Positions 2 through 64,000 of a stretch of DNA of 64,000 bases are shown in pieces (the stretch's first letter is position 1; each line of letters opens with the position of its first letter). This DNA is from a virus. The notes beneath the pieces were generated by a model. It had not been told where the DNA came from. It saw only the letters and a list, made by a program, of their open reading frames with translations, and ran no database searches. Location: IMG/VR virus record IMGVR_UViG_3300045988_113168; one strand, written 5' to 3'. Made by a program: the position numbers and the translations under genes.

Positions 2-796
2 GTTGTTGACTCCGCTTCCATCCTCAAGATGACTGCTACCCAGGGCCTCACCGCCTTCTCGCAGAAGCGTGCCAAGGTTAAGGCTGCATCTCAGGGTCTG
101 ACCGGTGATGAAAAGGCAGTTAAGATTGAGGGTGCTGGCATGGAGCTCAAGGATTTCAATACTCTGAACTTCAAGGGTCAGTCTCTGATTTTGGATCTGA
201 ATGCATCTGGTGTGAACTACATCGTTGTTTGCCGAGAGAAGGACGAGAAGCATACTAAGGTTGTGAATGGTTCTATCGTAAGTGAGCCTACTGGTCGTAA
301 GATTCCTGATGGGTTTGCTGGTCAGGAGTACAACGTTGATACTGAGTTCCGCCTGTATTTTCAGGATGGTCAGCAGCTCGCTTTCTTCGATAAGGATCGT
401 ACCGGTATGCATAAGGGCGGTGAGGTCGTTGAGGATCTGACCCTGCTTGAGTATCAGGATATTATTTCTAGTAGCGCAAAGAATCGGGAGAACGTCATCA
501 AAAACGGCTTAAACGATGCTGTTAAGACTGAGGTTAAGCTGAGTATGCGTGACCTTGGTATCGAAAACGATGAGCCGGATGATGTTCCGGCAGATAAGAG
601 TTCCGATAGTAAAGAGCCTTCTATGGATGACATCAAGGCAAAGCTGAATGACCTGATTGCTTCCGCTTCTCCTATGAAGAAGAGTGCCGCACAGAAGGCT
701 GTTAAGGCGGCTGGCCTGTCTACCGCATTCCGTTCTATGACTGATATTGAGGAACTGAAGAAGGTTGCCGCAGTCATGGAGAAGGAACTGGCTTAA
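2..796 (+). CDS. AAA_24/Sak4-like recombination ATPase, 5' end cut by window edge
   Basis: The frame is open from nt 2 (VVDSASILK, a Walker-B-like hhhDS block). NYIVVCREKDE and VDTEFRLYF resemble AAA_24 family blocks. Lys/Asp-rich C-terminal tail. Confidence 0.5.
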   Translation, partial: VVDSASILKMTATQGLTAFSQKRAKVKAASQGLTGDEKAVKIEGAGMELKDFNTLNFKGQSLILDLNASGVNYIVVCREKDEKHTKVVNGSIVSEPTGRKIPDGFAGQEYNVDTEFRLYFQDGQQLAFFDKDRTGMHKGGEVVEDLTLLEYQDIISSSAKNRENVIKNGLNDAVKTEVKLSMRDLGIENDEPDDVPADKSSDSKEPSMDDIKAKLNDLIASASPMKKSAAQKAVKAAGLSTAFRSMTDIEELKKVAAVMEKELA

Positions 797-30477: not shown

Positions 30478-30696
30478 ATGAAAGCACATATTCGAGAAGA
30501 AAAGAAAACAACTCCATTAAAACTTGGTGAGGGAACATTACTTCAAGAGAAAGACGGCAAACTGTATAAGATTTGTGATACAGTAGAATATGATGATACG
30601 CATACCGACGATGAAGTTATCAAGGTTGCTTTATCTGAAGAAAATATGATTGTTGGATCGAACTTTTTAATGCATCGTTTGTGTTCACAGATTTAG
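30478..30696 (+). CDS. hypothetical protein; the only early gene ending in TAG
   Basis: The stop at 30694-30696 is TAG. It is followed by GTG, TAG, six sense codons and then TGA. Confidence 0.5.
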   Translation: MKAHIREEKKTTPLKLGEGTLLQEKDGKLYKICDTVEYDDTHTDDEVIKVALSEENMIVGSNFLMHRLCSQI

Positions 30697-30704
30697 GTGT
30701 AGAT

Positions 30705-30935
30705 ATGCATAAAACTGATAGTTTGAAAAATCCGGTAATCGTATTTCCATGTAAGAATTGCGGTTGCACAACTAAGATTCGAGTAGCCTCTTTTGAAAAT
30801 CCTGATTTGGATATTCCTGAGAGTAATGTGATTGCGTGCTATAGATGTAGAGCGGAAGTTGCTGGATCTGAGTTTATTTCTTGGAAAGAAGCAACTAAAA
30901 CTATTTTTACCGTGGAGGTGCCAGATGGCAATTAA
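30705..30935 (+). CDS. Zn-ribbon protein, tandem family member 2
   Basis: CKNCGC ... CYRC. Confidence 0.5.
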   Translation: MHKTDSLKNPVIVFPCKNCGCTTKIRVASFENPDLDIPESNVIACYRCRAEVAGSEFISWKEATKTIFTVEVPDGN

Positions 30936-52994: not shown

Positions 52995-55508
52995 TCAAGT
53001 GGTCGATGGGTTATTGTTCTTATTCACGTCAGAGCGTAAATCAGGGAAGTATTGGTCAAGCATCCAGTCTTGATAGAGGTTATATTTACTTTCCTCTCCA
53101 TTGTGGCCTACAATATAGGGGTAATAGGGGAAATAGCGGCTCATTGTCAGAGACATTGTGCCCTCTCCAAGATTGATACTAAAGTTCTTAATGATCCAAT
53201 CGACCGGAGTTTTACTGTTCAAATATTTTGCTGCATATTGAATTTTTTCGTTTACATCGAGCCACGGAACTAACAAAATAGGCACCACCAACCCATCGGT
53301 TAATCGTGCCTTCTTCCATAATTCATATTTAGCAACTTCCATTGCCTTTTCATCCGTGGTATAGTTGTCATAGTCTCCGCCCGAAAGTATTTCATTGCGA
53401 CGACCAATTTTTTCAATTGAGAATTTTGCGTTATACAAATCATCGATATTGTCTGGATCAGTCATGCAGACATATTCAAGATTATCGCAGTTTTCTTCTT
53501 TTTTTTCTGCGGCAAGTTTATCGCCGGTCGGTACAGTATCTACCAATTTGACCATAGCATGAGATTGCTGCTGCCCAATAAAATAGAAGTGCTTTGTATC
53601 AGGGAACCACTGAATGACATAATACTTTCCCGCTTCCATGATAGAAGGTTCCTGCTCAACGTCGTTACCATCAGCGTTAGGAACAGATTTATAAAGCAGG
53701 GAAGTTTTTGTTGTAGTCTTCTGTTCAGTCCCGCCACCTCCATCGGCCTTAACTTCTGTTGTCACAAAATTAACAATTATATTCAAGGTTTTGCTTGTGA
53801 TTTTTGCAGGCATGATAAACGATATATTCGCTTCATCATCAACAGCAAGTTCTTTTACGGTCAGTGTAAGAGAATTCTTTTCGGAAGAATAAGTTGCAGT
53901 CGAAGAATATGCGTCAGAATCGATTGTAGCACCAAACACTTCAACACAGTTTCGAACCGTAGAATAATCCACTGTGGCCGACTCACCATCTGCCGTCACC
54001 AAACTTGCAAATAAATCTGGGTCGAGTACAGGCGGGTCATCAAATCCACTCGGAATTTCGTGACATACGAACACGTCATCATCGAAATACATCTCAAATG
54101 GATAGTAGAGGTCGCGCAACTCAGTCAAAATCTGCCACAAAGTTGTACCAGTCTCATATTCCAAATCGTAGGGAACATTACGCGTCCAATAATCAATCAC
54201 GCATTTGCTAAACTCGCTCATCGGCTGTTCAGTTAAGACTGTTTTAATAACAGGAGCGATACGTGTTCCTTTGTTGATTTTTGTTTTTAGACCAGTCAAC
54301 TGTCCAGCCAAATCGCCATTCAGTCGCGCCACAAGATCTACGCAAGAGCATTGCACTGTATTCGTAGTTGCGTTATATGTAAATCCATTTGACGAGATAG
54401 AAAAGCAACCTTGATTAAACCAGTGAACGTCTTGATTTTTAGAAAATACATTTATACGTTGCACAGATACTTTTTCGAATTCTTTATTGAACGACTCATT
54501 AAGCTTCTTCTTCGCTTGAATAACCTCGTCTTGAACATCGTGCATAGAATAACCAACATAAATGCTAGTAGTACCGTATTCTTCTTGAAGCTCTTTTTCA
54601 CTCCAACCAGCAATAGCACTGACATCAGCAGCAGATAACATACTACCGTTTACTGTTTGTCCCTGTATTGCGGCAATCATATTATGAACCTTAACAGATT
54701 TTCCCCAAAGTGTCATAGAAATACCTGTTTTATCTTTGAGTAGAATCGTAGCCGGATCGGTAGATGTACCAATAACTCTAGAAAGGTACTTGGATATTTC
54801 TGAATTACATAGAGGGATTAAATCACCATCATCAGGTTGAAAAAGAGGAGTGTATGCAATTTGTAGACCATTAAATTTATCGTCGCAACCAAGAACAGTA
54901 GAATAATCTCCTTTATTGATTATGGCTTCCGGGTCTGGTTCAAATGCTTTTTTGAATTCTGAAAAAACTAAAGAACTAAGCCATTTCCCTATGGTATTTA
55001 CAAAAGTCGTCTCACCATTCATCTCCTTTACAAATTTAGAATAGTAAGACATATTGTCATCGTTCCATTCAATCACGCCACGATTGATGTTGTCGATATT
55101 CCCGTATTTTGCATGACCTTCTTGAGTGATTTTTGAAACTAAAGCATTATATTCTGCTTTGGCTTTTTTATATCCAGCAGATTCTTTTGTCTTTTTTTCA
55201 AGTTCTGGGTACGAGAGGGAAGTAGTTTTGGCTCTTCCTTTTAGTCCGATAAAAACACGAACATTTTTGCTTATCCAGTCCTCCTCATCAAAAGCGGAGA
55301 CAACACTCTTTTTGCCGAGATACAACGTAGTATTAAAGGTGCGACGAATGTCTGACTCCGAATCAACACTTACAGTTCCATCAATCGCAATGCCTTCCAA
55401 AGAATCTACAGTTGCGAAATCTTTGTCCAATAAATCAATGCGACAATATATATGAGGAGAATGGCTTTTTAAAAGAGCGAGGTCTTCATCTGTAGGTAAG
55501 TACTTCAT
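52995..55508 (-). CDS. tail-associated/baseplate hub (Tal-like) protein
   Basis: 837 aa directly after the Dit-like gene. The N-terminal IDGTVSVDSESDIRRTFNTTL pattern is typical of sipho tail-tip proteins. Confidence 0.6.
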   Translation of the reverse strand: MKYLPTDEDLALLKSHSPHIYCRIDLLDKDFATVDSLEGIAIDGTVSVDSESDIRRTFNTTLYLGKKSVVSAFDEEDWISKNVRVFIGLKGRAKTTSLSYPELEKKTKESAGYKKAKAEYNALVSKITQEGHAKYGNIDNINRGVIEWNDDNMSYYSKFVKEMNGETTFVNTIGKWLSSLVFSEFKKAFEPDPEAIINKGDYSTVLGCDDKFNGLQIAYTPLFQPDDGDLIPLCNSEISKYLSRVIGTSTDPATILLKDKTGISMTLWGKSVKVHNMIAAIQGQTVNGSMLSAADVSAIAGWSEKELQEEYGTTSIYVGYSMHDVQDEVIQAKKKLNESFNKEFEKVSVQRINVFSKNQDVHWFNQGCFSISSNGFTYNATTNTVQCSCVDLVARLNGDLAGQLTGLKTKINKGTRIAPVIKTVLTEQPMSEFSKCVIDYWTRNVPYDLEYETGTTLWQILTELRDLYYPFEMYFDDDVFVCHEIPSGFDDPPVLDPDLFASLVTADGESATVDYSTVRNCVEVFGATIDSDAYSSTATYSSEKNSLTLTVKELAVDDEANISFIMPAKITSKTLNIIVNFVTTEVKADGGGGTEQKTTTKTSLLYKSVPNADGNDVEQEPSIMEAGKYYVIQWFPDTKHFYFIGQQQSHAMVKLVDTVPTGDKLAAEKKEENCDNLEYVCMTDPDNIDDLYNAKFSIEKIGRRNEILSGGDYDNYTTDEKAMEVAKYELWKKARLTDGLVVPILLVPWLDVNEKIQYAAKYLNSKTPVDWIIKNFSINLGEGTMSLTMSRYFPYYPYIVGHNGEESKYNLYQDWMLDQYFPDLRSDVNKNNNPSTT

Positions 55509-56167
55509 GTTGTACCTCCTACCGGCAAATATTCGCTCAGTCCATTACTGTACATATCATCTTCACTCTCAATAGATCCGATTTCGACAAAGTTGAAACT
55601 CAACGTACCTTTGTCATAATGCTCAGAACAACTTGTAGTAACACTGCCATTTACTCCAATTAGCCACTCACGCCCATCAAACATTTTGAGAACTTTTGCG
55701 TCTCCGTTAGTAAGCCATGCTGAGATTTCTTTACGGTAATCATTTCCACCGTCAACATCAAATTCATCTTGAGCCATATCGAATTCAATACCAACACCCG
55801 AAAAATCACCAGAATAATAGTTCGCTTCATTGCCAAAATACAGATAGGGGTATTTGCTACTCATGGTTTCGACGATAGAAGCAGTGCGTTTTAGCTCAAC
55901 ACTGTCTACCTTTGGCTCAAGAAGAATGTGATAAGATGTTTCTCCATCTGTAATAATTGCGCCATCAAATTCACTGACTACTATCTTTTTAACATAGCCC
56001 TTTTCAATAGTATTAACAACAGGAGACACAGCATATTCATAAGGCTGTTTGCGCCCAGCCGCATACCAGTCAGTGTGTTCCATTATGACATATCCGGTAT
56101 TTTCTGAATGCAATTTTATTCCATGAATAGTATCAGAGAATGGTTTAGTGACGTTCTTTTCGGGCAT
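55505..56167 (-). CDS. distal tail protein (Dit-like); possibly the C-terminal part of a TAG-readthrough fusion
   Basis: YRKEISAWLTNGDAKVLKMFDGREWLIGVNG is Dit-like. Same frame as 56276..57361, with only two TAGs between them. Confidence 0.6.
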   Translation of the reverse strand: MPEKNVTKPFSDTIHGIKLHSENTGYVIMEHTDWYAAGRKQPYEYAVSPVVNTIEKGYVKKIVVSEFDGAIITDGETSYHILLEPKVDSVELKRTASIVETMSSKYPYLYFGNEANYYSGDFSGVGIEFDMAQDEFDVDGGNDYRKEISAWLTNGDAKVLKMFDGREWLIGVNGSVTTSCSEHYDKGTLSFNFVEIGSIESEDDMYSNGLSEYLPVGGTT

Positions 56168-56275
56168 GACGCTAATCCTAAAATACGCGATAATATTCTT
56201 ATAATTTACATTCCAAGATGATTTATTCTAAGTTCCAACATTTCGTGTCTTGTTAAGCATTGCAGAAATCGATTT

Positions 56276-57361
56276 CTATAGGTTTTTCATAAAAGAACTA
56301 AGAGAGGAAAAACGATCCAATGCTTCATTATAGGTATATTCTTTTCCGTCGGAATAATATTTAATGCTTGTTTCCGTATAGCCTAAGAATTTTTGGTTTT
56401 TGTCATATGCTATAATTCTAGCAATATATCCATCAGCCGATATTTCGACTGACTTTAAATCACTTGCCGGGATTAGATTAGTGCTCATTGAGATGTTATC
56501 TGTAGTAAATACTCCACTTTGACTAACATAGCCATTTGACCAGTTGGGCAATAAGAGCAAATCGTTTGATAAATCAACTTGTTTTTCATAAATAGTCATC
56601 CATGTGGTATCTAAAGGCTTTTTGCGCTTAAACCGAAGATGAGTAATGTCACTCTTCACATTGGCTGGATATTTTGCAAAAAGGTTAATACAACCACGCC
56701 ATTTATCGTTTCCTGCATCAAAAATTACTCCATCAATTTGTTCACTATATTTCGTCTTAAACTGTTTGAACCCAGTATCAAGCTGGTAACCTCCAATTGA
56801 TTCTGCTTTAGCACGAACATAATAAACGCTATTATTGTCAAGGCCATCAACATAAAAACTCTTCATAGAGTCACGGTGATAAAAACATTGTGACTTTTTG
56901 ATTTCGTTTTTATTAGAGTCATAAAGATAATATTCATATCTATTGATAACTTCACCCTCAGCCGTTTTGTAGGTATAATCACAATCAAAAGAGTATGAAG
57001 GTGTAAAGATAATTTTAGAAGAGGAAATGTCGGAGAATGCCCTGAATTTAATGGAAGGTTTCTCGTGACAATAAAACAGAATCTTGTCACTATATTCGCT
57101 GAAAGTGTTCGTACCAGTTAATCTGCAACGAATCATGATATAATAAGGGTCATGCTGATTTACAAGGACCCCACCTTTAATTACAAATTGTCGAGCTAGG
57201 CCAGTTCCAGTGGGAGCTACTGTGCCAAATTTATAAACAGTGCTATCTTTTGACTTGAAGACGATATAGGCAACTAAGTCAATATCGGCATATGCTCCGA
57301 ACTGGAATGAAGCGTCTTCGTTAGCACTAAATACATTGATTTTTGATAGAATTGGTTTCAC
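56276..57361 (-). CDS. tail protein with beta-sandwich repeats; ends in TAG
   Basis: GTG start after a GGAGGTG RBS. The terminator codon at 56276-56278 is TAG. Confidence 0.6.
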   Translation of the reverse strand: MKPILSKINVFSANEDASFQFGAYADIDLVAYIVFKSKDSTVYKFGTVAPTGTGLARQFVIKGGVLVNQHDPYYIMIRCRLTGTNTFSEYSDKILFYCHEKPSIKFRAFSDISSSKIIFTPSYSFDCDYTYKTAEGEVINRYEYYLYDSNKNEIKKSQCFYHRDSMKSFYVDGLDNNSVYYVRAKAESIGGYQLDTGFKQFKTKYSEQIDGVIFDAGNDKWRGCINLFAKYPANVKSDITHLRFKRKKPLDTTWMTIYEKQVDLSNDLLLLPNWSNGYVSQSGVFTTDNISMSTNLIPASDLKSVEISADGYIARIIAYDKNQKFLGYTETSIKYYSDGKEYTYNEALDRFSSLSSFMKNL

Positions 57362-57376
57362 TGTATCACCTCCAAG

Positions 57377-58759: not shown

Positions 58760-61700
58760 TTAATTTCGCTTACTCATTTTTTGAGAAAGTTTGTTGGGAA
58801 GATTGCGGACAATTTCGTTTGCCAAATCTTCTGCTCCACCAACAGGGTTCTGAATAACAATATCTCCAATGGAAATATCAATATTAGAACCGCCGTTAGA
58901 AGATAGTGAAGCCGTTCCGTACTTAGACATCTGATCCTGGAACCAAGCATCTGGATTGCCACCCATCTCGAAGAGACGAGAAGTAATATCTGCAGGAACG
59001 ACTCCATCGCCGGTTTCAAGATAAGTATAACGTCCAGCTTGCGGTTGACGAACCAGAAGCTCAGAACCTTGCTCGTCAACATTATACTTGCCGGATTTTT
59101 GAATGCTTCGAGAACCAGAAGCTTTTTTACCAGTGATTTTTTCTTTAATTTTGTCAACAAAACTCTTTTTCTCAGAAGAACTACTGGAACTATTAGAAGA
59201 TTTGCTAGACGAAGTAGAAGAACTCTTGTCTTTATCCCGAGAACTACTAGAAGAACTACTCTTACCCGTAACTGCATTATAAGCACTCTGAACGCCGTTC
59301 TTAATACTACTAACAATATTAGAACCAGTCTTCCATGCAGAAGAATTAGTGATTTTATCTTTGGTGGAACTTATAGCATTGTTTACCTTACTTCCTACCG
59401 TAGAGTTGTCCCATTTCTCTTTGACATTAGAAGCAATTTCTTTAGTCGTAGTTACTAATCCACTGACAGCGTTGTTTACTTTGCCGCCGAGCCAAGAATT
59501 GTTCCATGCGTTTTTTGCACTACTAACTGCGTTGCTTCCAACTTCATAGATGTCTTTACCAAGCTCTAACAAGCTCTTACCGCCAGAAACAGTCGTGGGA
59601 GTACCACTGCCGCCACCAGAAGACAAACTACTCGAAGATGTGGAACTATTGCTGGTAGTATTTTTGGTAGTAGGAGTTGTCTGACCTTTATCGTACAGAT
59701 CGTTTCCAATCGTACCAAAACTATCACGAATAGAAGAAATAGTGTTATCGCAACTCTTAGTGATGCTATCATAAGCTTTCCCCATGACCCACGTAATATT
59801 TTCACTAAGATCGATAGCACCGGGCTCAACATTCTTCCAGGCATTTGCCATTTGGTCAGGGAGAACTTTATTCAAAGTCTCTTCACTCTTGGATTCGATT
59901 GTACTATATGCGCCATTGATTGTGCTTTGAGTATTATCGGCCAAGTCACGGACACCGCTTTCGGCCATGCCCCAGCTGCTATCGAAACAAGCTCGCATAT
60001 CATAGAGCATCTTTTCGGTATCACCGGTGGTATCAGCCCAAGCTTTAGAAATAGTAGACTCCGTTTTAGCACTCAGGTTGCGGATACCACCACCACACTG
60101 ATTCCAACTATTCTTCATCTTACTAGAGATGGAATCCATTGCATTAGAACAGCTATCTTTCATAGAATTGAAAGAGTTCGCCATTTTATTAGCGTTAGAC
60201 TCACTCATCTCGTCAGTCATAGATGCCATTTTGTTAAAACCAGCAGTATATGTGTTTTGCATTGACTGGAACAGTTTTTTCGTGATACCCTCGACCTGTT
60301 CTGCGTTCAGTGCGGTATTGTCTCCGATAGCGGCATAGGTATCTTTAACCAGCTTCTGCATATTGCTATACATTTCTTTACTGGTTGCATCAATCTGATC
60401 GTCGCTCAAACCAACCTCTTTTGCCATATCCTTCCATGTCTTCTCAAACTGAGATTTCATAGAATCAAGCTGGGCAAGTGTGTTGGATTTGGAAGAAGAA
60501 ATGAGATTGTCAAGAGGATTACCTGTACTACTATTACCAAAGCCAAAGAATTTACTAATTGAATCCTTTATTAAGCTTCCGCTATTTATTAAGCCTCCGC
60601 CGTTTATTACGCTTCCGATATTCTTTATCTTATCAAACCATTTCGAAATCGAAGAGTTTTGACCAGAAGAGTTTATAGTGGACTTGGTTTTATCTGCGAA
60701 TGTAGTAAACTTTAAATTCAACCCGCCTAGAGTCTTAACGCTCTTTGAAAGCAGCGTAGGAATAAGGCCGGTCTTATTATCATCACGAATATCGTCAACG
60801 GCCTCAACTACTTCATCAACTTTAGAGTCAATGGCAGTGTTTTTGCGAGCTTGAGGCGCAGAAGTAATAGTCGTATATCCGCTGGAAGCAGCAGAGTTGC
60901 GAGAGCTAGGTATTTTAGAGGCTACGTTCTTGACCCAGCCGATAGGATTCTTGGCGATTCCCATTAAAGTCGCGGTTTGTTTTGCGGGGATAACTCCGTC
61001 ACCTTTTTCGAGTTGAGTCAGGCGTCCCTTCTCGGGGGAGCGAACGATTATCTCTTCGCCTTCCTCATCGACATTATAAGTACCAGCCTTTTCGACTTTC
61101 TTAGTACCTTTAGCAAATCCAAACAGTTTACCAACCCAGCGAATTGGAGCAGTCACAATGTGTCCGATTGTACCAAGTAAGCCGCGTTTCTTTGTACCAT
61201 CGCTAGATGTGCCACCAAACAAGAATTTTCCAATGCCACTAACGGCTTTAGTGATCGTTTTGCCAATACTCTTAACTATTTTACCAAGAGTTTTGCCAAT
61301 ACCAGTTACAGCTTTCCCGATAGTGGAACCGATTTTTGCGAGACCGTTTGTAAATGAGCCGCCACCGATTGCACTGACAGCAAGCGTGCCGCCAAGGAGA
61401 ATCGTACCGATGACAGGAATATGACTGACTGCAGCCGCAATAGTTCCAGCGACACCAGTACCACCTGCAGTACCTACAGCGGCAGTTACCGTTCGACCAA
61501 TTCCTTTGAAAATACCAGCAATACCAGAAAACAGCTTGGTTCCACCCAATGTAGTACCGATGCCACCGAAAATTGAGCCAAGCCCACCAACCGCTTTTTG
61601 GGCAATAGATGCGACTCCACTGAATCCCTTCTGGAAGATTGACATTAGACCGCCACTGCCAGAGAAAATTCCCTGTGCTGCAGAGACTACAGTCGTTTTT

Positions 61701-64000
61701 ACATTGCCAAGAGATTTTACAATAGCCTGTCCTAGTTTAGAAATCTAACTAGTGCTCTCTCCAAGGAACCCTTTTGCTGCAGCGTACTTATTAGAGCCTC
61801 CAACGCCAAGGAAGCTCTTTCCTGCGTCCAAGAGGCGTCCCCAGAATCCTTTACCAGAACTCTTATCAGAGAACGTACCAACCGCACGCTGCAGACGATT
61901 CTACAGACCCGTAATTCCACCGTTCTGAGTAGAACCATTCAGATTGCCAAGCACGTCTCCGAGCTTAGTCAGTGTATCAATCAGTGTCTCAAGCTTGGTG
62001 ATAACATTAGAAACATTAGTTGCTCGCTGGACCGCCTTCATATTGGAGACAACAGAGGCCATAAATCCATCGTAGTGACCTTCCATCTCTGCAAAAGTCA
62101 TAGCCTCGAACTGAGACGTATATTTCAGTTTCTTCTGATAGTCGTCCCAGCTTGTGCCAATAAGGTTAGTGGCTTCCTGAACCTTATCTTTGAGCTTGTT
62201 CAGCCGGTCGATTTCTTCCTGTTTCTTATACTCACGGCGTTTGCTGTTGAGGTCACTCTGAGCGTCACGAACTGTACTTGCATCAGCCTCCCACTCGTAA
62301 CCATTCTCGCCATAGACGCGAGTGGTCTTATTGGCCTGTGCTTTCGCGAGAGCATCCTCGGCTTTTTGCAGTTCAATCGCACGCTCTTGAGCATCATTCT
62401 GCTCATTCAGCGCGTCGATACGTTTGTCGATAACATCAATCCATGCATCACCCTGAATCTTCAGGTCGTTGGACTTTTTATCATTGAGCTTATTGAAAAT
62501 ATCAAGCAGTGAAGAGAAAAGGTCTTTAAGGTTAGAGATGACAGACTGTAACTTTTGAGCCTCAGTACCCATCCCCTTCATATGGTCGGTAACATCCCAA
62601 GTACCATTTGCTACCTTTTCAAGAATTTCGGCGTAACGATCTCCGAGGTCAGTACCCTTATATGTTTCTGCAAGGACTTTTAGCTGCTCAATGTAAAGGT
62701 CTCTAAAGGCTTCCTTGTTAAAGACGAGTTTCCCGCCTTCTTCTTTAAGGCAAGCCGCATACTTTGGATTAAGAGACATATACTTCTGGATGGTATCTTG
62801 ACTTAATTCTCCATAAGCGTTATACTCATCTACAATATCAAACAAATCGTTGAATGCACTCTGGTAGTCATCCATTGAATTATTGATTTTGCTAAGAGTA
62901 CTTCCGATTCCGTTAATATAATCCTCAATGCTGAGTGCATTGCTTGCAATCTTATTCTTTGCATCTTCAAAGCCCTTGGCAAGATATGTTCCAGCGGCTC
63001 CGCCAGTCTCCTTACAAGCTGCAATCATCTTGTCGAGACTATCAAGGAACATATCCTTAAAAGCGTCGCTGTTGTAATCAATATCTCCAGTCTCGGGATT
63101 CAATGCCCCAGCGTACTTGTCATTCGTAAACAAGTCTGTGTTATCATATAGGTCACGAATTGCCTGATACTTTTTCTCAACATCGTCAGAATCTAGCAGT
63201 CCAAACGGATTGTCAATCTTGTTTTTGCTAACATCGGACAGCCCAGAGAATGCGGATTTTATAGCGTCTGTCTTTTCTTTGGCATCTGCCATCGCGGTGC
63301 CGTAGCCCTTGATGGCATCAGTTAACTGCTCAAAAGAAATGGTTTCGGAATCGACACTAGAGTTCAACCAGTCAAGAATCTTCTTCATCTCGCCAGCAGA
63401 CTTGCCACCATCATTAGCTGCATTCGCTTCCTCAAGCTGCGCTCTGACAAAAGTGCGGAATTTTGCGGTATTAAGTTCAAGTTTTCCATTTTGCTCAGTT
63501 AAGCAAGCAGTAAACTTATCATCAACACCGATTAACGACTTCATGGTGTCTGCACTAATATAGCCATATTGGTTATATTCTTTCATCGCTTTTGTTAAGG
63601 TATCAAATGCGGATGCAATATCAGATACAGACTTCGCGGTAGATTTATTGTTCTTGTTGGTCTTATTTGTCGGGAACCCATTAAGCTGATTTGTTAGTTT
63701 TTGTCCACCCCTTAGAGCAGCGTTCATATTGGTGTACAACAGAGAAAGCTGAGTATTTGTGCGATTCGTGATTTCCTCTAGCTTTGCAGGATCTACACCG
63801 CGTTCACCTGCTTTTTCGACTTCGTTCGCAAACTCTTGAGCCGCGCTATATGTAGCGGTTGCCGCAGTAGCATTTTTCAAAGCGGGGAGAAGATTCTCAA
63901 GAGCAGTCTTTTCGGCCTTGGTTTTCTCTTTTAGGTTATCAGTGCTTTCAGCTGTGTCATCGGCAGTAAGGTTTGCAACCTCATGTTGTGCATTAGAAAG
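58760..64000 (-). CDS. tail tape-measure protein, 5' end off-window, containing two in-frame TAG codons
   Basis: A single frame is open from 64000 to 58760 apart from TAG at 61901-61903 and 61745-61747. Helical N-terminal half, Gly/Lys IGK repeats, a Ser-rich tract, and the duplicated motif YNVDE.G.E..VR.P..GR.T.LE.GDGV.PA. Confidence 0.85.

Follow-up and report, generated by a model that had tools for sequence, protein, structure and literature searches.

Recurrent in-frame amber codons in tail genes of a gut siphovirus point to a probable reading of TAG as tryptophan

The window analyzed here, a 64,000-nt stretch of DNA from a large gut siphovirus, carries two in-frame amber (TAG) codons within its tail tape-measure gene, and both were confirmed to be real (Table 1). 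Our best reading of the comparative data is a sparse recoding of TAG to tryptophan, which would be a variant of the stop-codon recoding already known from phages. Specifically, with a probability of roughly three in four, TAG would be a sense codon in this lineage, with UAG read, most probably as Trp, by a tRNA of anticodon CUA, or tRNA(CUA), derived from the phage tRNA-Trp(CCA), such that the tape-measure gene and a second tail protein gene would both be read through. The TAGs are recurrent, the ORFs that they interrupt are continuous in relatives, and TAG is strongly tied to alignment columns occupied by Trp. Moreover, relatives encode the tRNA(CUA), which is akin to the CCA allele and occurs alongside in-frame TAGs, while TAG is almost never a terminator. 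With somewhat less assurance, we consider it probable that this is a human-gut phage lineage with a natural TAG-to-Trp code, acquired via a C35U anticodon switch in its own tRNA-Trp, and that codon capture is in progress; close relatives still include carriers of the CCA allele, carriers of the CUA allele, and genomes in which the slot is empty.

Table 1. Features of the window that contain or constitute TAG codons
Feature	Position	Strand	Description
Tail tape-measure gene	58760..64000	-	One frame, 1747 codons, two in-frame TAGs; 5' end beyond the window
In-frame TAG #1	61901..61903	-	Aromatic position of the tape measure
In-frame TAG #2	61745..61747	-	Gly/Ser/Lys-rich linker of the tape measure; recent GAG (Glu) to TAG change
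Tail protein gene	55505..57376	-	623 codons, two in-frame TAGs
In-frame TAG, tail protein gene	56276..56278	-	Within a lineage-specific insertion
In-frame TAG, tail protein gene	56228..56230	-	Invariant Trp column
TAG GTG TAG	30694..30702	+	At the end of an early ORF (87 codons); TGA 7 codons beyond

The tape-measure gene

The source is a phage of ~110-150 kb with genes for Pol III alpha, RecD2, NrdD, and RecJ; a YonO-like RNA polymerase and an integrase are encoded by its relatives. Among GenBank/INPHARED phages the only relative was an unannotated 30-kb fragment (MT835573), and the sole hint of a host was one distant match (53% identity) to a 141.8-kb contig of a Eubacteriales MAG.

Re-translation of the tape-measure frame agreed with the original prediction, returning internal stops only at codons 700 and 752, both of them TAG, with no TAA or TGA in the 1747 codons, and an identical bridging peptide between the two. 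The frame was open to nt 64000, and the gene start therefore lies outside of the window; in the closest relatives, the tape-measure ORFs comprise ~2280-2330 codons when TAG is read through. The protein has the characteristics of its family, being very long, helix- and Gly-rich, encoded upstream of distal tail genes, and homologous to other tape measures. In a PHROG search its C-terminal part matched phrog_167 (2.2e-11) and phrog_4070, and its N-terminal part matched phrog_4211 (7e-4). Downstream of it are tail proteins, a holin, and an endolysin.

Under genetic code 11, the tape measure is called as ORFs of 659+ aa and 961 aa. The first ATG/GTG/TTG past TAG #2 in the ORF listing is at 61645, and, in line with the earlier claim that no Shine-Dalgarno sequence precedes this Met, GGAGG is absent from the 15 nt ahead of it (GGCAGTGGCGGTCTA), whereas GGAGGTG is found 8 nt ahead of the GTG start of the next gene. 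Between the TAGs, the 51-codon middle segment lacks ATG and GTG and contains a single in-frame TTG (61829-61831); in relatives, both this segment and the 33 codons ahead of the ATG at 61645 show conservation at the protein level. Of 80 relatives (phages of 110-150 kb), about half have a single TAG-free tape-measure ORF of ~2000 aa. The positions of in-frame TAGs vary among relatives, with sense codons in others, so a conserved gene split is not the case. The original interpretation, in which a single tape-measure protein of at least 1747 codons depends on decoding of TAG at two points, is supported by the PHROG matches to both halves, the TAG-free ORFs in relatives, the variable TAG positions, the lack of a plausible restart site, and the presence of tRNA(CUA) in 7/7 of the nearest relatives that could be fetched.

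The two TAGs differ in their columns. The column of TAG #1 is mainly Phe (TTC 37, TTT 16, TGG 9, TAG 9, ATC 6), with ...GGITGL*NRLQRAV aligned opposite ...GGITGLFNRLQRAI and ...KGLWNTIKGF, and the codon is TAG in at least eight IMG/VR relatives as well (L001-L005, L009, L018, L067). At TAG #2, the five closest relatives have GAG, with flanks that are identical (L009) or differ by one base. The exact context of TAG #2 had no match in IMG/VR, but four metagenome contigs matched it, all four of which have TAG at TAG #1. One of these, an independent contig (L402, OGHH01000435.1) with 98.3% identity to the window across 935 nt, likewise reads TAG at TAG #2, where the other three have GAG. Hence, when checked for sequencing or assembly error, both TAGs were found to recur in independent assemblies.

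A second tail gene and stop codon usage

A tail protein gene is also interrupted, code-11 calling splitting it into ORFs 56276..57361 and 55505..56167. In more than 30 relatives this gene is one ORF of 595-612 aa, aligned across residues 1-620, and its C-terminal part matches phrog_27355. The TAG in the lineage-specific insertion is common to four relatives (L001, L003, L009, L067), and other homologs are gapped there, such that its residue cannot be inferred. At the other TAG, L003, L009, and L067 have TGG, while L011, L078, L060, L035, and L017 have W; the flanking codons are identical in L003 and L067, and TGG versus TAG is the sole difference between near-identical sequences at this site. 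Treating TAG as sense restores both the tape-measure gene and this gene to single ORFs that match their TAG-free homologs, and all four stops that interrupt genes in the window are TAG, none being TAA or TGA.

TAG is depleted as a terminator in both the window and its relatives. Stop codons called for the genes of the window were TAA (44), TGA (35), and TAG (4). One of the four TAG-ended calls was an alternative-frame ORF (61732..61938) and two were in-frame sites in the tape-measure and tail genes; thus, the four in-frame sites aside, TAG closes one of ~80 called genes, at 30694-30696, where it may be a true terminator or may give a 10-residue extension. In relatives, the proportion of late-region ORFs that end in TAG was 1.3% in the group with tRNA(CUA) and 0.2% in the group without. 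All four in-frame TAGs of the window are in late genes, but a restriction to late genes is not strict, given that some TAG/W sites in relatives are in early-region genes.

A comparison of coding density under codes 11 and 15, which had been proposed as a check, gave no information with only four TAGs in 64 kb. The code-11 greedy gene set already covered 95% of the window, and the marked gain expected for code 15 (~5-10% or more) was not seen. By a cruder measure, the coverage by ORFs of at least 150 aa rose from 78.6% to 83.2% with TAG as sense, a smaller gain than for read-through of TGA or TAA.

Residues in TAG columns

Across relatives, 436 validated in-frame TAG sites represented 68 independent columns, 62 of them informative. 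ORFs overlapping tRNA clusters and antisense ORFs were excluded from this set, as were matches of TAG to Gln on the noncoding strand, artefacts produced by Leu codons (CTA/CTG) of the coding strand. The majority residue among TAG-free homologs was W in 35 columns, Q in 10, E in five, and Y in two. W-majority columns thus comprised 35/62, versus 6.8% expected from the share of TGG among codons one step from TAG (p = 7.5e-25), and in 31 of the 35 at least 90% of homologs have W. Weighed against CAG alone, which is twice as frequent as TGG, W made up 78% of the W and Q columns, versus 33% expected (p = 1.3e-9). TAG occupies conserved Trp positions, including invariant ones (71/71, 70/70, 69/69, and 67/67 homologs), and individual W columns have TAG in up to 42 loci, while Q columns have it in only one or two.

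Several columns run contrary to Trp. TAG #2 replaces Glu and TAG #1 lies in a mainly Phe column, and there are the 10 Gln-majority and five Glu-majority columns. One mainly Glu column among these is TAG in 28 loci, with Glu in 114/117 locally similar homologs (E/D/S/R mixed in another comparison). The distribution of the base after TAG equals that of the base after TGG, and no suppression context was detected in this comparison of following bases. On balance, these alignments make Trp the most likely residue for TAG, in place of the Gln that genetic code 15 would assign.

An amber tRNA in the tRNA-Trp slot

The check for a tRNA with a CUA anticodon found one in relatives only, just upstream of the terminase/portal late operon, a region outside of the window, and no tRNA gene of any kind was found in the window itself. 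The tRNA(CUA) was present in 50/80 loci of one fetched set and 44/80 of another, and tRNA-Trp(CCA) in 6 and 11 loci, respectively. Both occupy the same slot, ~155 nt after tRNA-Ser and ~182 nt before tRNA-Met, and share the acceptor stem (GCGCCYA/TGGGCGT) and discriminator G73. The identity of tRNA(CUA) to the CCA allele is 0.64-0.78, compared with 0.51-0.70 to every other phage tRNA, and the phage tRNA-Gln(UUG) is in a different cluster. The tRNA(CUA) of the nearest relative scored 45.3 bits (E = 3.7e-8) against the Rfam tRNA model, with anticodon loop CUCUAAA. Several variants have a degenerate T-arm and were not called by ARAGORN, which, used alone, under-called the suppressor at 33/80 loci; a pattern search combined with the Rfam model recovered them. 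Cluster A, located beyond position 1 of the window, contained Leu, Leu, Pro, Gln, Leu, Gly, and Met tRNAs and no CUA tRNA, and the ARAGORN calls His-AUG, Ile-UAU, and Tyr-AUA in this cluster are not suppressors.

The tRNA(CUA) was present in all seven available relatives that share TAG #1. Moreover, all 30 contigs with tRNA(CUA) had validated in-frame TAGs (1-8 each), while the counts in contigs without it were 0, 0, 0, 0, 0, 1, and 1, a further truncated contig being uninformative. The genomes are mosaic, the first gene of the window being 100% identical to that of a contig that has neither tRNA(CUA) nor in-frame TAGs. When the contig of the window itself was sought, this gene was located only on one of 2.9 kb. 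Genes for TrpRS, GlnRS, or release factors were not found among the large proteins of the window or around the tRNA cluster of relatives, in a scan that covered these regions apart from ~13 kb (contig 112782, ~64,060-76,965) and many small ORFs.

Taken together, these data suggest a mechanism in which tRNA(CUA) would descend from the phage's own tRNA-Trp(CCA) and decode UAG, most probably as tryptophan. Translation of the tape-measure gene would then continue across both TAGs and yield one protein of ~2290 aa, and the two TAGs of the tail protein gene would be passed in the same way. As no tRNA lies in the window, we infer from relatives that its own genome carries the suppressor. The host TrpRS would have to charge tRNA(CUA) with Trp, suppression would have to be efficient enough in competition with RF1, and the location of the tRNA ahead of the late operon may time its expression. 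In Escherichia coli, su+7 is a tRNA-Trp whose anticodon is CUA; it receives largely Gln, since U35 is read by GlnRS, and C35 serves as an identity element for TrpRS. Trp as the residue inserted at TAG is consequently a prediction.

Alternative explanations

Ordinary code 15, with the same phage tRNA(CUA) charged with Gln, or with a Trp/Gln mixture as for su+7, appears unlikely, although it retains some credit. U35 and G73 are shared identity features for GlnRS and count toward Gln charging, published phage amber reassignments are all to Gln, and the 10/62 Gln-majority columns (16%) are close to the ~13.7% expected from neighbor-codon usage, such that a depletion of Gln is seen only if transition bias is taken into account. 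However, there are 35 W-majority columns and only 10 with a Q majority despite CAG being twice as frequent as TGG, many TAGs are in invariant Trp columns, and the Q columns are singletons whereas W columns persist across many genomes. Furthermore, tRNA(CUA) is allelic to tRNA-Trp(CCA) and not to tRNA-Gln(UUG). TAG aligned with Gln and a Gln-type suppressor, the hallmarks of code 15, were thus not what we found. It is considerably less probable that TAG is read without a phage tRNA, be it by a host suppressor, a pyrrolysine system, or A-to-I editing that converts UAG to UIG (Trp), as happens at the amber/W site of hepatitis delta virus. The window does lack a tRNA, a few relatives without a recognized tRNA(CUA) show a single apparent TAG site, and editing would likewise yield Trp; yet the tight co-occurrence of in-frame TAGs with the phage tRNA(CUA) argues against this reading, and genes for an editing enzyme or a Pyl system were not found in the regions scanned.

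That TAG is a normal stop, with the tape measure truly divided into two or three polypeptides or translation reinitiating downstream, is very improbable. It would agree with the two long code-11 ORFs and the ATG at 61645, but that ATG has no Shine-Dalgarno sequence while neighboring genes have GGAGG, the 33 codons ahead of it and the 51-codon middle segment are conserved as protein, and TAG positions vary among relatives that have sense codons instead. We give slightly less credence still to inactivating nonsense mutations in a defective phage, or to assembly or sequencing errors. The absence of the TAG #2 context from IMG/VR, and GAG at this site in the closest IMG/VR relatives, would suit such an origin; against it are the recurrence of both TAGs in independent assemblies, the exclusive use of TAG at the four interruptions, the densely intact remainder of the 64 kb (95% ORF-covered), and the co-occurrence of in-frame TAGs with tRNA(CUA) across 30 contigs. 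Programmed read-through of the Q-beta A1 or MuLV gag-pol type, which involves one leaky stop in a conserved place, a stimulatory context, and two functional products, was rejected on the grounds that TAG positions vary, with sense codons in other relatives, and that the +4 base is as after TGG.

Implications

TAG to Trp has not been established for any phage, and the known phage TAG cases are Gln. The stop recodings known from phages are TAG to Gln, TGA to Trp, and TGA to Gly; if true, TAG to Trp would add a new natural reassignment. It would also imply that one anticodon change in a phage tRNA-Trp is enough to create a suppressor, and that TAG has been purged as a terminator from a whole gene pool in which each genome has a handful of TAGs. 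With the CCA allele, the CUA allele, and tRNA loss coexisting in one population, codon capture would be directly testable. For annotation, code 11 splits the tape-measure, terminase, portal-like, and tail genes, while translation table 15 would give the wrong residue at every TAG if the Trp reading is true. Since there are few TAGs per genome, density-based code callers would probably choose code 11 and miss the recoding. Finally, a Trp-type amber suppressor may be of interest to genetic-code-expansion work.

Comparison with known systems

A likeness in terms of tRNA structure is su+7, which also has a tRNA-Trp body with its anticodon changed from CCA to CUA by C35U. However, su+7 is a laboratory allele of a host gene that inserts mainly Gln through mischarging by GlnRS, whereas the present tRNA is natural and phage-borne, and the TAGs are at Trp positions. 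The same reassignment, TAG to Trp, is seen in NCBI translation table 32, the Balanophoraceae plastid code. That code belongs to a parasitic-plant plastid of extreme AT bias in which the whole genome is reassigned, unlike a phage that has its own tRNA and a host that presumably uses the standard code. Code 32 has been called 'rarely reported' (PMC10879173). In the same study, 19.4% of 180 theta-ribozyme-associated amber suppressor tRNAs scored as Trp isotype, a result of isotype prediction only, without Trp alignment evidence, from which code 15 was concluded (Kienbeck et al. 2024; PMC10879173). These Trp-isotype tRNA-Sup(CUA) near theta ribozymes of gut phages may be of the same kind as the tRNA described here, although tRNA(CUA) and its downstream motif had no match in the supplementary text of that paper.

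Several features are shared with TAG-recoded gut phages of code 15 (crAss-like, Lak, Garnet/Topaz, and phAss-1; Borges et al., bioRxiv 10.1101/2021.08.26.457843; Peters et al., PMC9523058; Babkin et al., PMC10607447), namely in-frame TAG in structural and packaging genes that include the tape measure, a phage-encoded tRNA(CUA) (here in relatives), avoidance of TAG as a terminator, and the human gut habitat. For those phages, Gln is the residue aligned with TAG and the suppressor is a Gln-type tRNA, while here the alignment is mainly with Trp and the tRNA is a tRNA-Trp allele. They are also TAG-rich (41/147 ORFs in phAss-1), such that code-11 density collapses, in contrast to the ~4 TAGs in 64 kb observed here. 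TAG to Gln and TGA to Trp were the only reassignments observed by Borges et al. (bioRxiv 10.1101/2021.08.26.457843), who proposed a role for stop recoding in late-gene regulation. Some Jade phages encode TrpRS and RF1, neither of which was found here in the parts scanned. As in the TGA-to-Trp phages (code 4; Jade, Agate), a stop codon would have been captured for Trp by a tRNA-Trp-related suppressor; in code-4 phages UGA needs a wobble-position change only (anticodon UCA), whereas here the codon captured would be UAG.

Amber codons in the tape-measure and tail genes

The tape-measure frame (58760..64000, minus strand) comprises 1747 codons and is open through the end of the window, with two TAGs as its sole internal stops upon translation (see table), just as the original prediction had stated; the peptide it proposed to bridge the nominal ORFs was also reproduced exactly. 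After the second TAG, the first ATG, GTG, or TTG in the ORF listing was an ATG at 61645 that, as had been claimed, lacks a Shine-Dalgarno sequence, and the next gene has GGAGGTG located 8 nt 5′ of its GTG start. The view that the frame encodes one tape-measure protein with TAG decoded was supported, in that both halves matched tape-measure PHROGs and TAG-free single frames exist in relatives.

Specifically, querying IMG/VR with the N-terminal portion recovered 80 related loci; their contigs measure 110-150 kb and come chiefly from a single large metagenome set. With only TAG taken as sense, the homologous frame in these relatives spans 1600-2400 codons; approximately half have a TAG-free frame, and the rest contain one to three TAGs at varied positions. 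The exact context of the second TAG was not found in IMG/VR, and its flanks in the five closest relatives were identical or nearly identical to the window. A metagenome scan exposed this context in four contigs, one of which, OGHH01000435.1, has TAG at both positions and shares 98.3% identity with the window across 935 nt, while the remaining three have GAG at the second position and TAG at the first. Because the first TAG recurs in eight relatives and both recur in this independent contig, sequencing or assembly error is unlikely. The same recurrence, alongside the frames and codons of the relatives, also renders a conserved gene split and a recent pseudogenisation of the tape measure unlikely, judging from these sequences.

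Positions of TAG codons in the window
Feature	Position	Strand	Observation
Tape-measure TAG, first	61901-61903	-	TAG in window and 8 relatives; others TTC (37), TTT (16), TGG (9), ATC (6)
Tape-measure TAG, second	61745-61747	-	No IMG/VR relative with TAG; five closest have GAG
Tail-gene TAG, first	56276-56278	-	With the second tail-gene TAG, separates two code-11 ORFs
Tail-gene TAG, second	56228-56230	-	Invariant Trp column; TGG in relatives L003, L009, L067
Fourth TAG end	30694-30702	+	TAG GTG TAG, then TGA seven codons on (30694-30726); early ORF

A second late gene, encoding a tail protein (55505-57376, minus strand), is likewise interrupted. The code-11 ORFs 56276..57361 and 55505..56167 share one frame, and the gene is a single ORF of 595-612 aa in >30 relatives. 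At the second tail-gene TAG, the flanking codons of L003 and L067 are identical to those of the window.

Stop codons in the window were TAA (44), TGA (35), and TAG (4). The four TAG-ended calls comprised two that belong to the in-frame TAGs of the tape-measure and tail genes, an early ORF that may end at its TAG or may gain a 10-residue tail, and one alternative-frame ORF. The latter (61732-61938, minus strand), a 68-codon ATG ORF spanning the stretch between the tape-measure TAGs and ending in TAG, is probably a chance overlap. Tail proteins, a 2257-aa fibre-like protein, holin, and endolysin lie 3′ of the tape measure on the same strand, and the plus-strand half of the window (G+C of 41.6% overall) has replication functions (DnaB-like helicase, RecJ, Pol III alpha, RecD2, and NrdD).

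Tryptophan in homologues at amber positions

In-frame TAGs were taken from the coding strand of 240 sequences (related loci and the window late region). Sites were discarded unless TAG-free homologues of other loci could be aligned over them, and those retained were grouped into independent alignment columns. The resulting 436 sites formed 68 columns, of which 62 were informative. The residue that homologues place at TAG, the comparison suggested in the original prediction, was predominantly Trp in 35 informative columns (31 with at least 90% Trp), followed by Gln (10), Glu (5), and Tyr (2); five columns had another single majority residue and five were mixed. Trp accounts for 1.0% of residues in these proteins and TGG for 6.8% of codons one substitution from TAG (Trp excess p = 7.5e-25, binomial test). 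With CAG as the sole comparison (it is the second transition neighbour of TAG and twice as frequent as TGG), 33% Trp would be expected for the 35:10 split (p = 1.3e-9).

Many of the TAG columns were invariant for Trp (71/71, 70/70, 69/69, and 67/67). Trp columns were common to up to 42 loci and Gln columns to one or two, as would follow were TAG a synonym of TGG and, in columns of other residues, an amino-acid substitution. The base following TAG was distributed as that following TGG. TAG-bearing genes included the large terminase, a portal-like protein, the tape measure, several tail proteins, and a ~341-aa protein, possibly the major capsid protein. In some relatives (among regions L161-L240, e.g., L202:14030-15751 and L180:17372-20602), TAG was also present at conserved Trp positions in early or replication-region genes, so that recoding is not strictly limited to the late genes.

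A tRNA slot with CUA and CCA alleles

The search for a CUA tRNA that the original prediction had proposed was successful in relatives, in which it belongs to one of two tRNA clusters identified outside the window by walking along related contigs; no tRNA gene was found in the window itself. Cluster A, beyond window position 1, comprises tRNAs for Leu, Leu, Pro, Gln, Leu, Gly, and Met but contains no suppressor. Cluster B has PhoH/phosphoesterase genes on one side and the terminase-portal operon on the other, and lies ~28 kb upstream of the tape measure. Here, the slot between tRNA-Ser(UGA) and tRNA-Met held the CUA tRNA in 50/80 and 44/80 loci of two fetched sets, tRNA-Trp(CCA) in 6 and 11, respectively, or, as a third state, nothing recognisable. 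The CUA and CCA tRNAs have the same spacing, acceptor stem (GCGCCYA/TGGGCGT), discriminator G73, and CCA end, and the CUA tRNA is 0.64-0.78 identical to the CCA allele versus 0.51-0.70 to other phage tRNAs. The copy from contig 112782, whose tape measure (87% identity) places it among the two closest relatives, scored 45.3 bits (E = 3.7e-8, Rfam tRNA model) and has the anticodon loop CUCUAAA.

All 30 contigs with the CUA tRNA had 1-8 validated in-frame TAGs in ~40 kb, and the tRNA was present in 7/7 relatives with the first tape-measure TAG whose cluster region was obtained. Contigs lacking it had 0, 0, 0, 0, 0, 1, and 1 in-frame TAGs, and one more ends before cluster B.

Several other elements were observed in these regions. 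A conserved hairpin directly 3′ of the CUA tRNA (L321:2660-2705; same place in L369, L322, and L342) has arms that vary yet stay complementary (GGTTTCCAA/TTGGAGAC versus GGCTATATG/CATATAGC), followed by invariant AAGTCCGAAGTC. It may act in processing, for instance as a theta/HDV-like ribozyme; it had no match in Rfam or in the supplement text of PMC10879173. In relatives without the CUA or CCA tRNA (L342 ~2620-2735; L328, L376), the slot contains a long tRNA-like element with acceptor GAGCTTG...CAAGCTC, a normal T-arm (GGTTCGAATCC), an oversized middle, and no ARAGORN call. Elsewhere, a 91-nt tRNA (L196:5372-5462; also L291, L306, L309) called Tyr(AUA) by ARAGORN has UCUAUAC in an ambiguous anticodon region; a non-standard loop there could contain CUA as the anticodon.

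TAG terminators and mosaicism

TAG ended 1.3% of late-region ORFs in the CUA group and 0.2% in the no-CUA group. Even relatives devoid of both the CUA tRNA and in-frame TAGs had it at a mere 1/519 ORF ends (late regions of L001-L080 and L321-L400). These near-zero values in both groups suggest that TAG stops were purged from the whole recombining gene pool. The first gene of the window (29-796, plus strand) is 100% identical to that of L163/L376, from contig 2843291059_000004 (isolate-genome project), which has no CUA tRNA and no in-frame TAGs, while the window late genes are closest to suppressor-bearing contigs, an indication that mosaicism among recoded and non-recoded relatives is strong. 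Additionally, a 927-aa protein of contig 112782 (L408:5413-8193) matches Pfam RdRP PF05183 (1e-13), the family of the YonO-like two-barrel RNA polymerases found in SPbeta-type phages. Considered with the genes for integrase, antirepressor, and Pol III alpha, this match suggests a temperate Firmicutes phage resembling SPbeta.

Proposed decoding and relation to known recoding systems

Most likely, UAG is read as Trp by a phage tRNA-Trp whose anticodon has undergone a C35U change, by which the tape measure and tail protein would be made full length. The genome of the window would itself carry this tRNA, with some doubt given its mosaicism and the identity of its first gene to that of a suppressor-free contig. 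Insertion of Gln, or mixed insertion, instead of Trp alone would accord with the ten Gln-majority columns and with E. coli su+7, an analogous tRNA-Trp-type amber suppressor that is largely glutaminylated, but is countered by the excess of Trp-majority columns despite the greater frequency of CAG, and by the CUA tRNA being nearest to the tRNA-Trp(CCA) allele. For Trp decoding, the CUA tRNA would presumably be charged by TrpRS; no TrpRS or release-factor genes were found among the large proteins of the window or in the surroundings of the relatives' tRNA clusters. The CUA tRNA, being placed ahead of the late operon, could time the expression of late genes, a role already suggested in other recoded phages (Borges et al., bioRxiv 10.1101/2021.08.26.457843).

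The present phage falls within the known class of stop-codon-recoded gut phages. It does not show the features that define code 15, namely Gln columns, a Gln-type tRNA, and a gain in coding density. TAG as Trp corresponds to NCBI table 32, known from the plastids of Balanophoraceae. In phages with a code unlike that of the host, Borges et al. reported no reassignments other than TAG to Gln and TGA to Trp, and amber recoding was handled as table 15 by Cook et al. and in the phAss-1 paper. A literature search with literal phrases for TAG/UAG read as tryptophan gave no match. The Trp isotype was assigned to 19.4% of theta-ribozyme-associated amber suppressor tRNAs, as the "rarely reported code 32", in a study that concluded code 15 (Kienbeck et al., PMC10879173). 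Our finding fits the TAG-to-Trp variant, so far hinted at solely by such tRNA isotype prediction, and is notable for its unusual Trp assignment, for the CCA and CUA alleles that coexist at one tRNA slot, and for recoding so sparse that standard detection would probably miss it.
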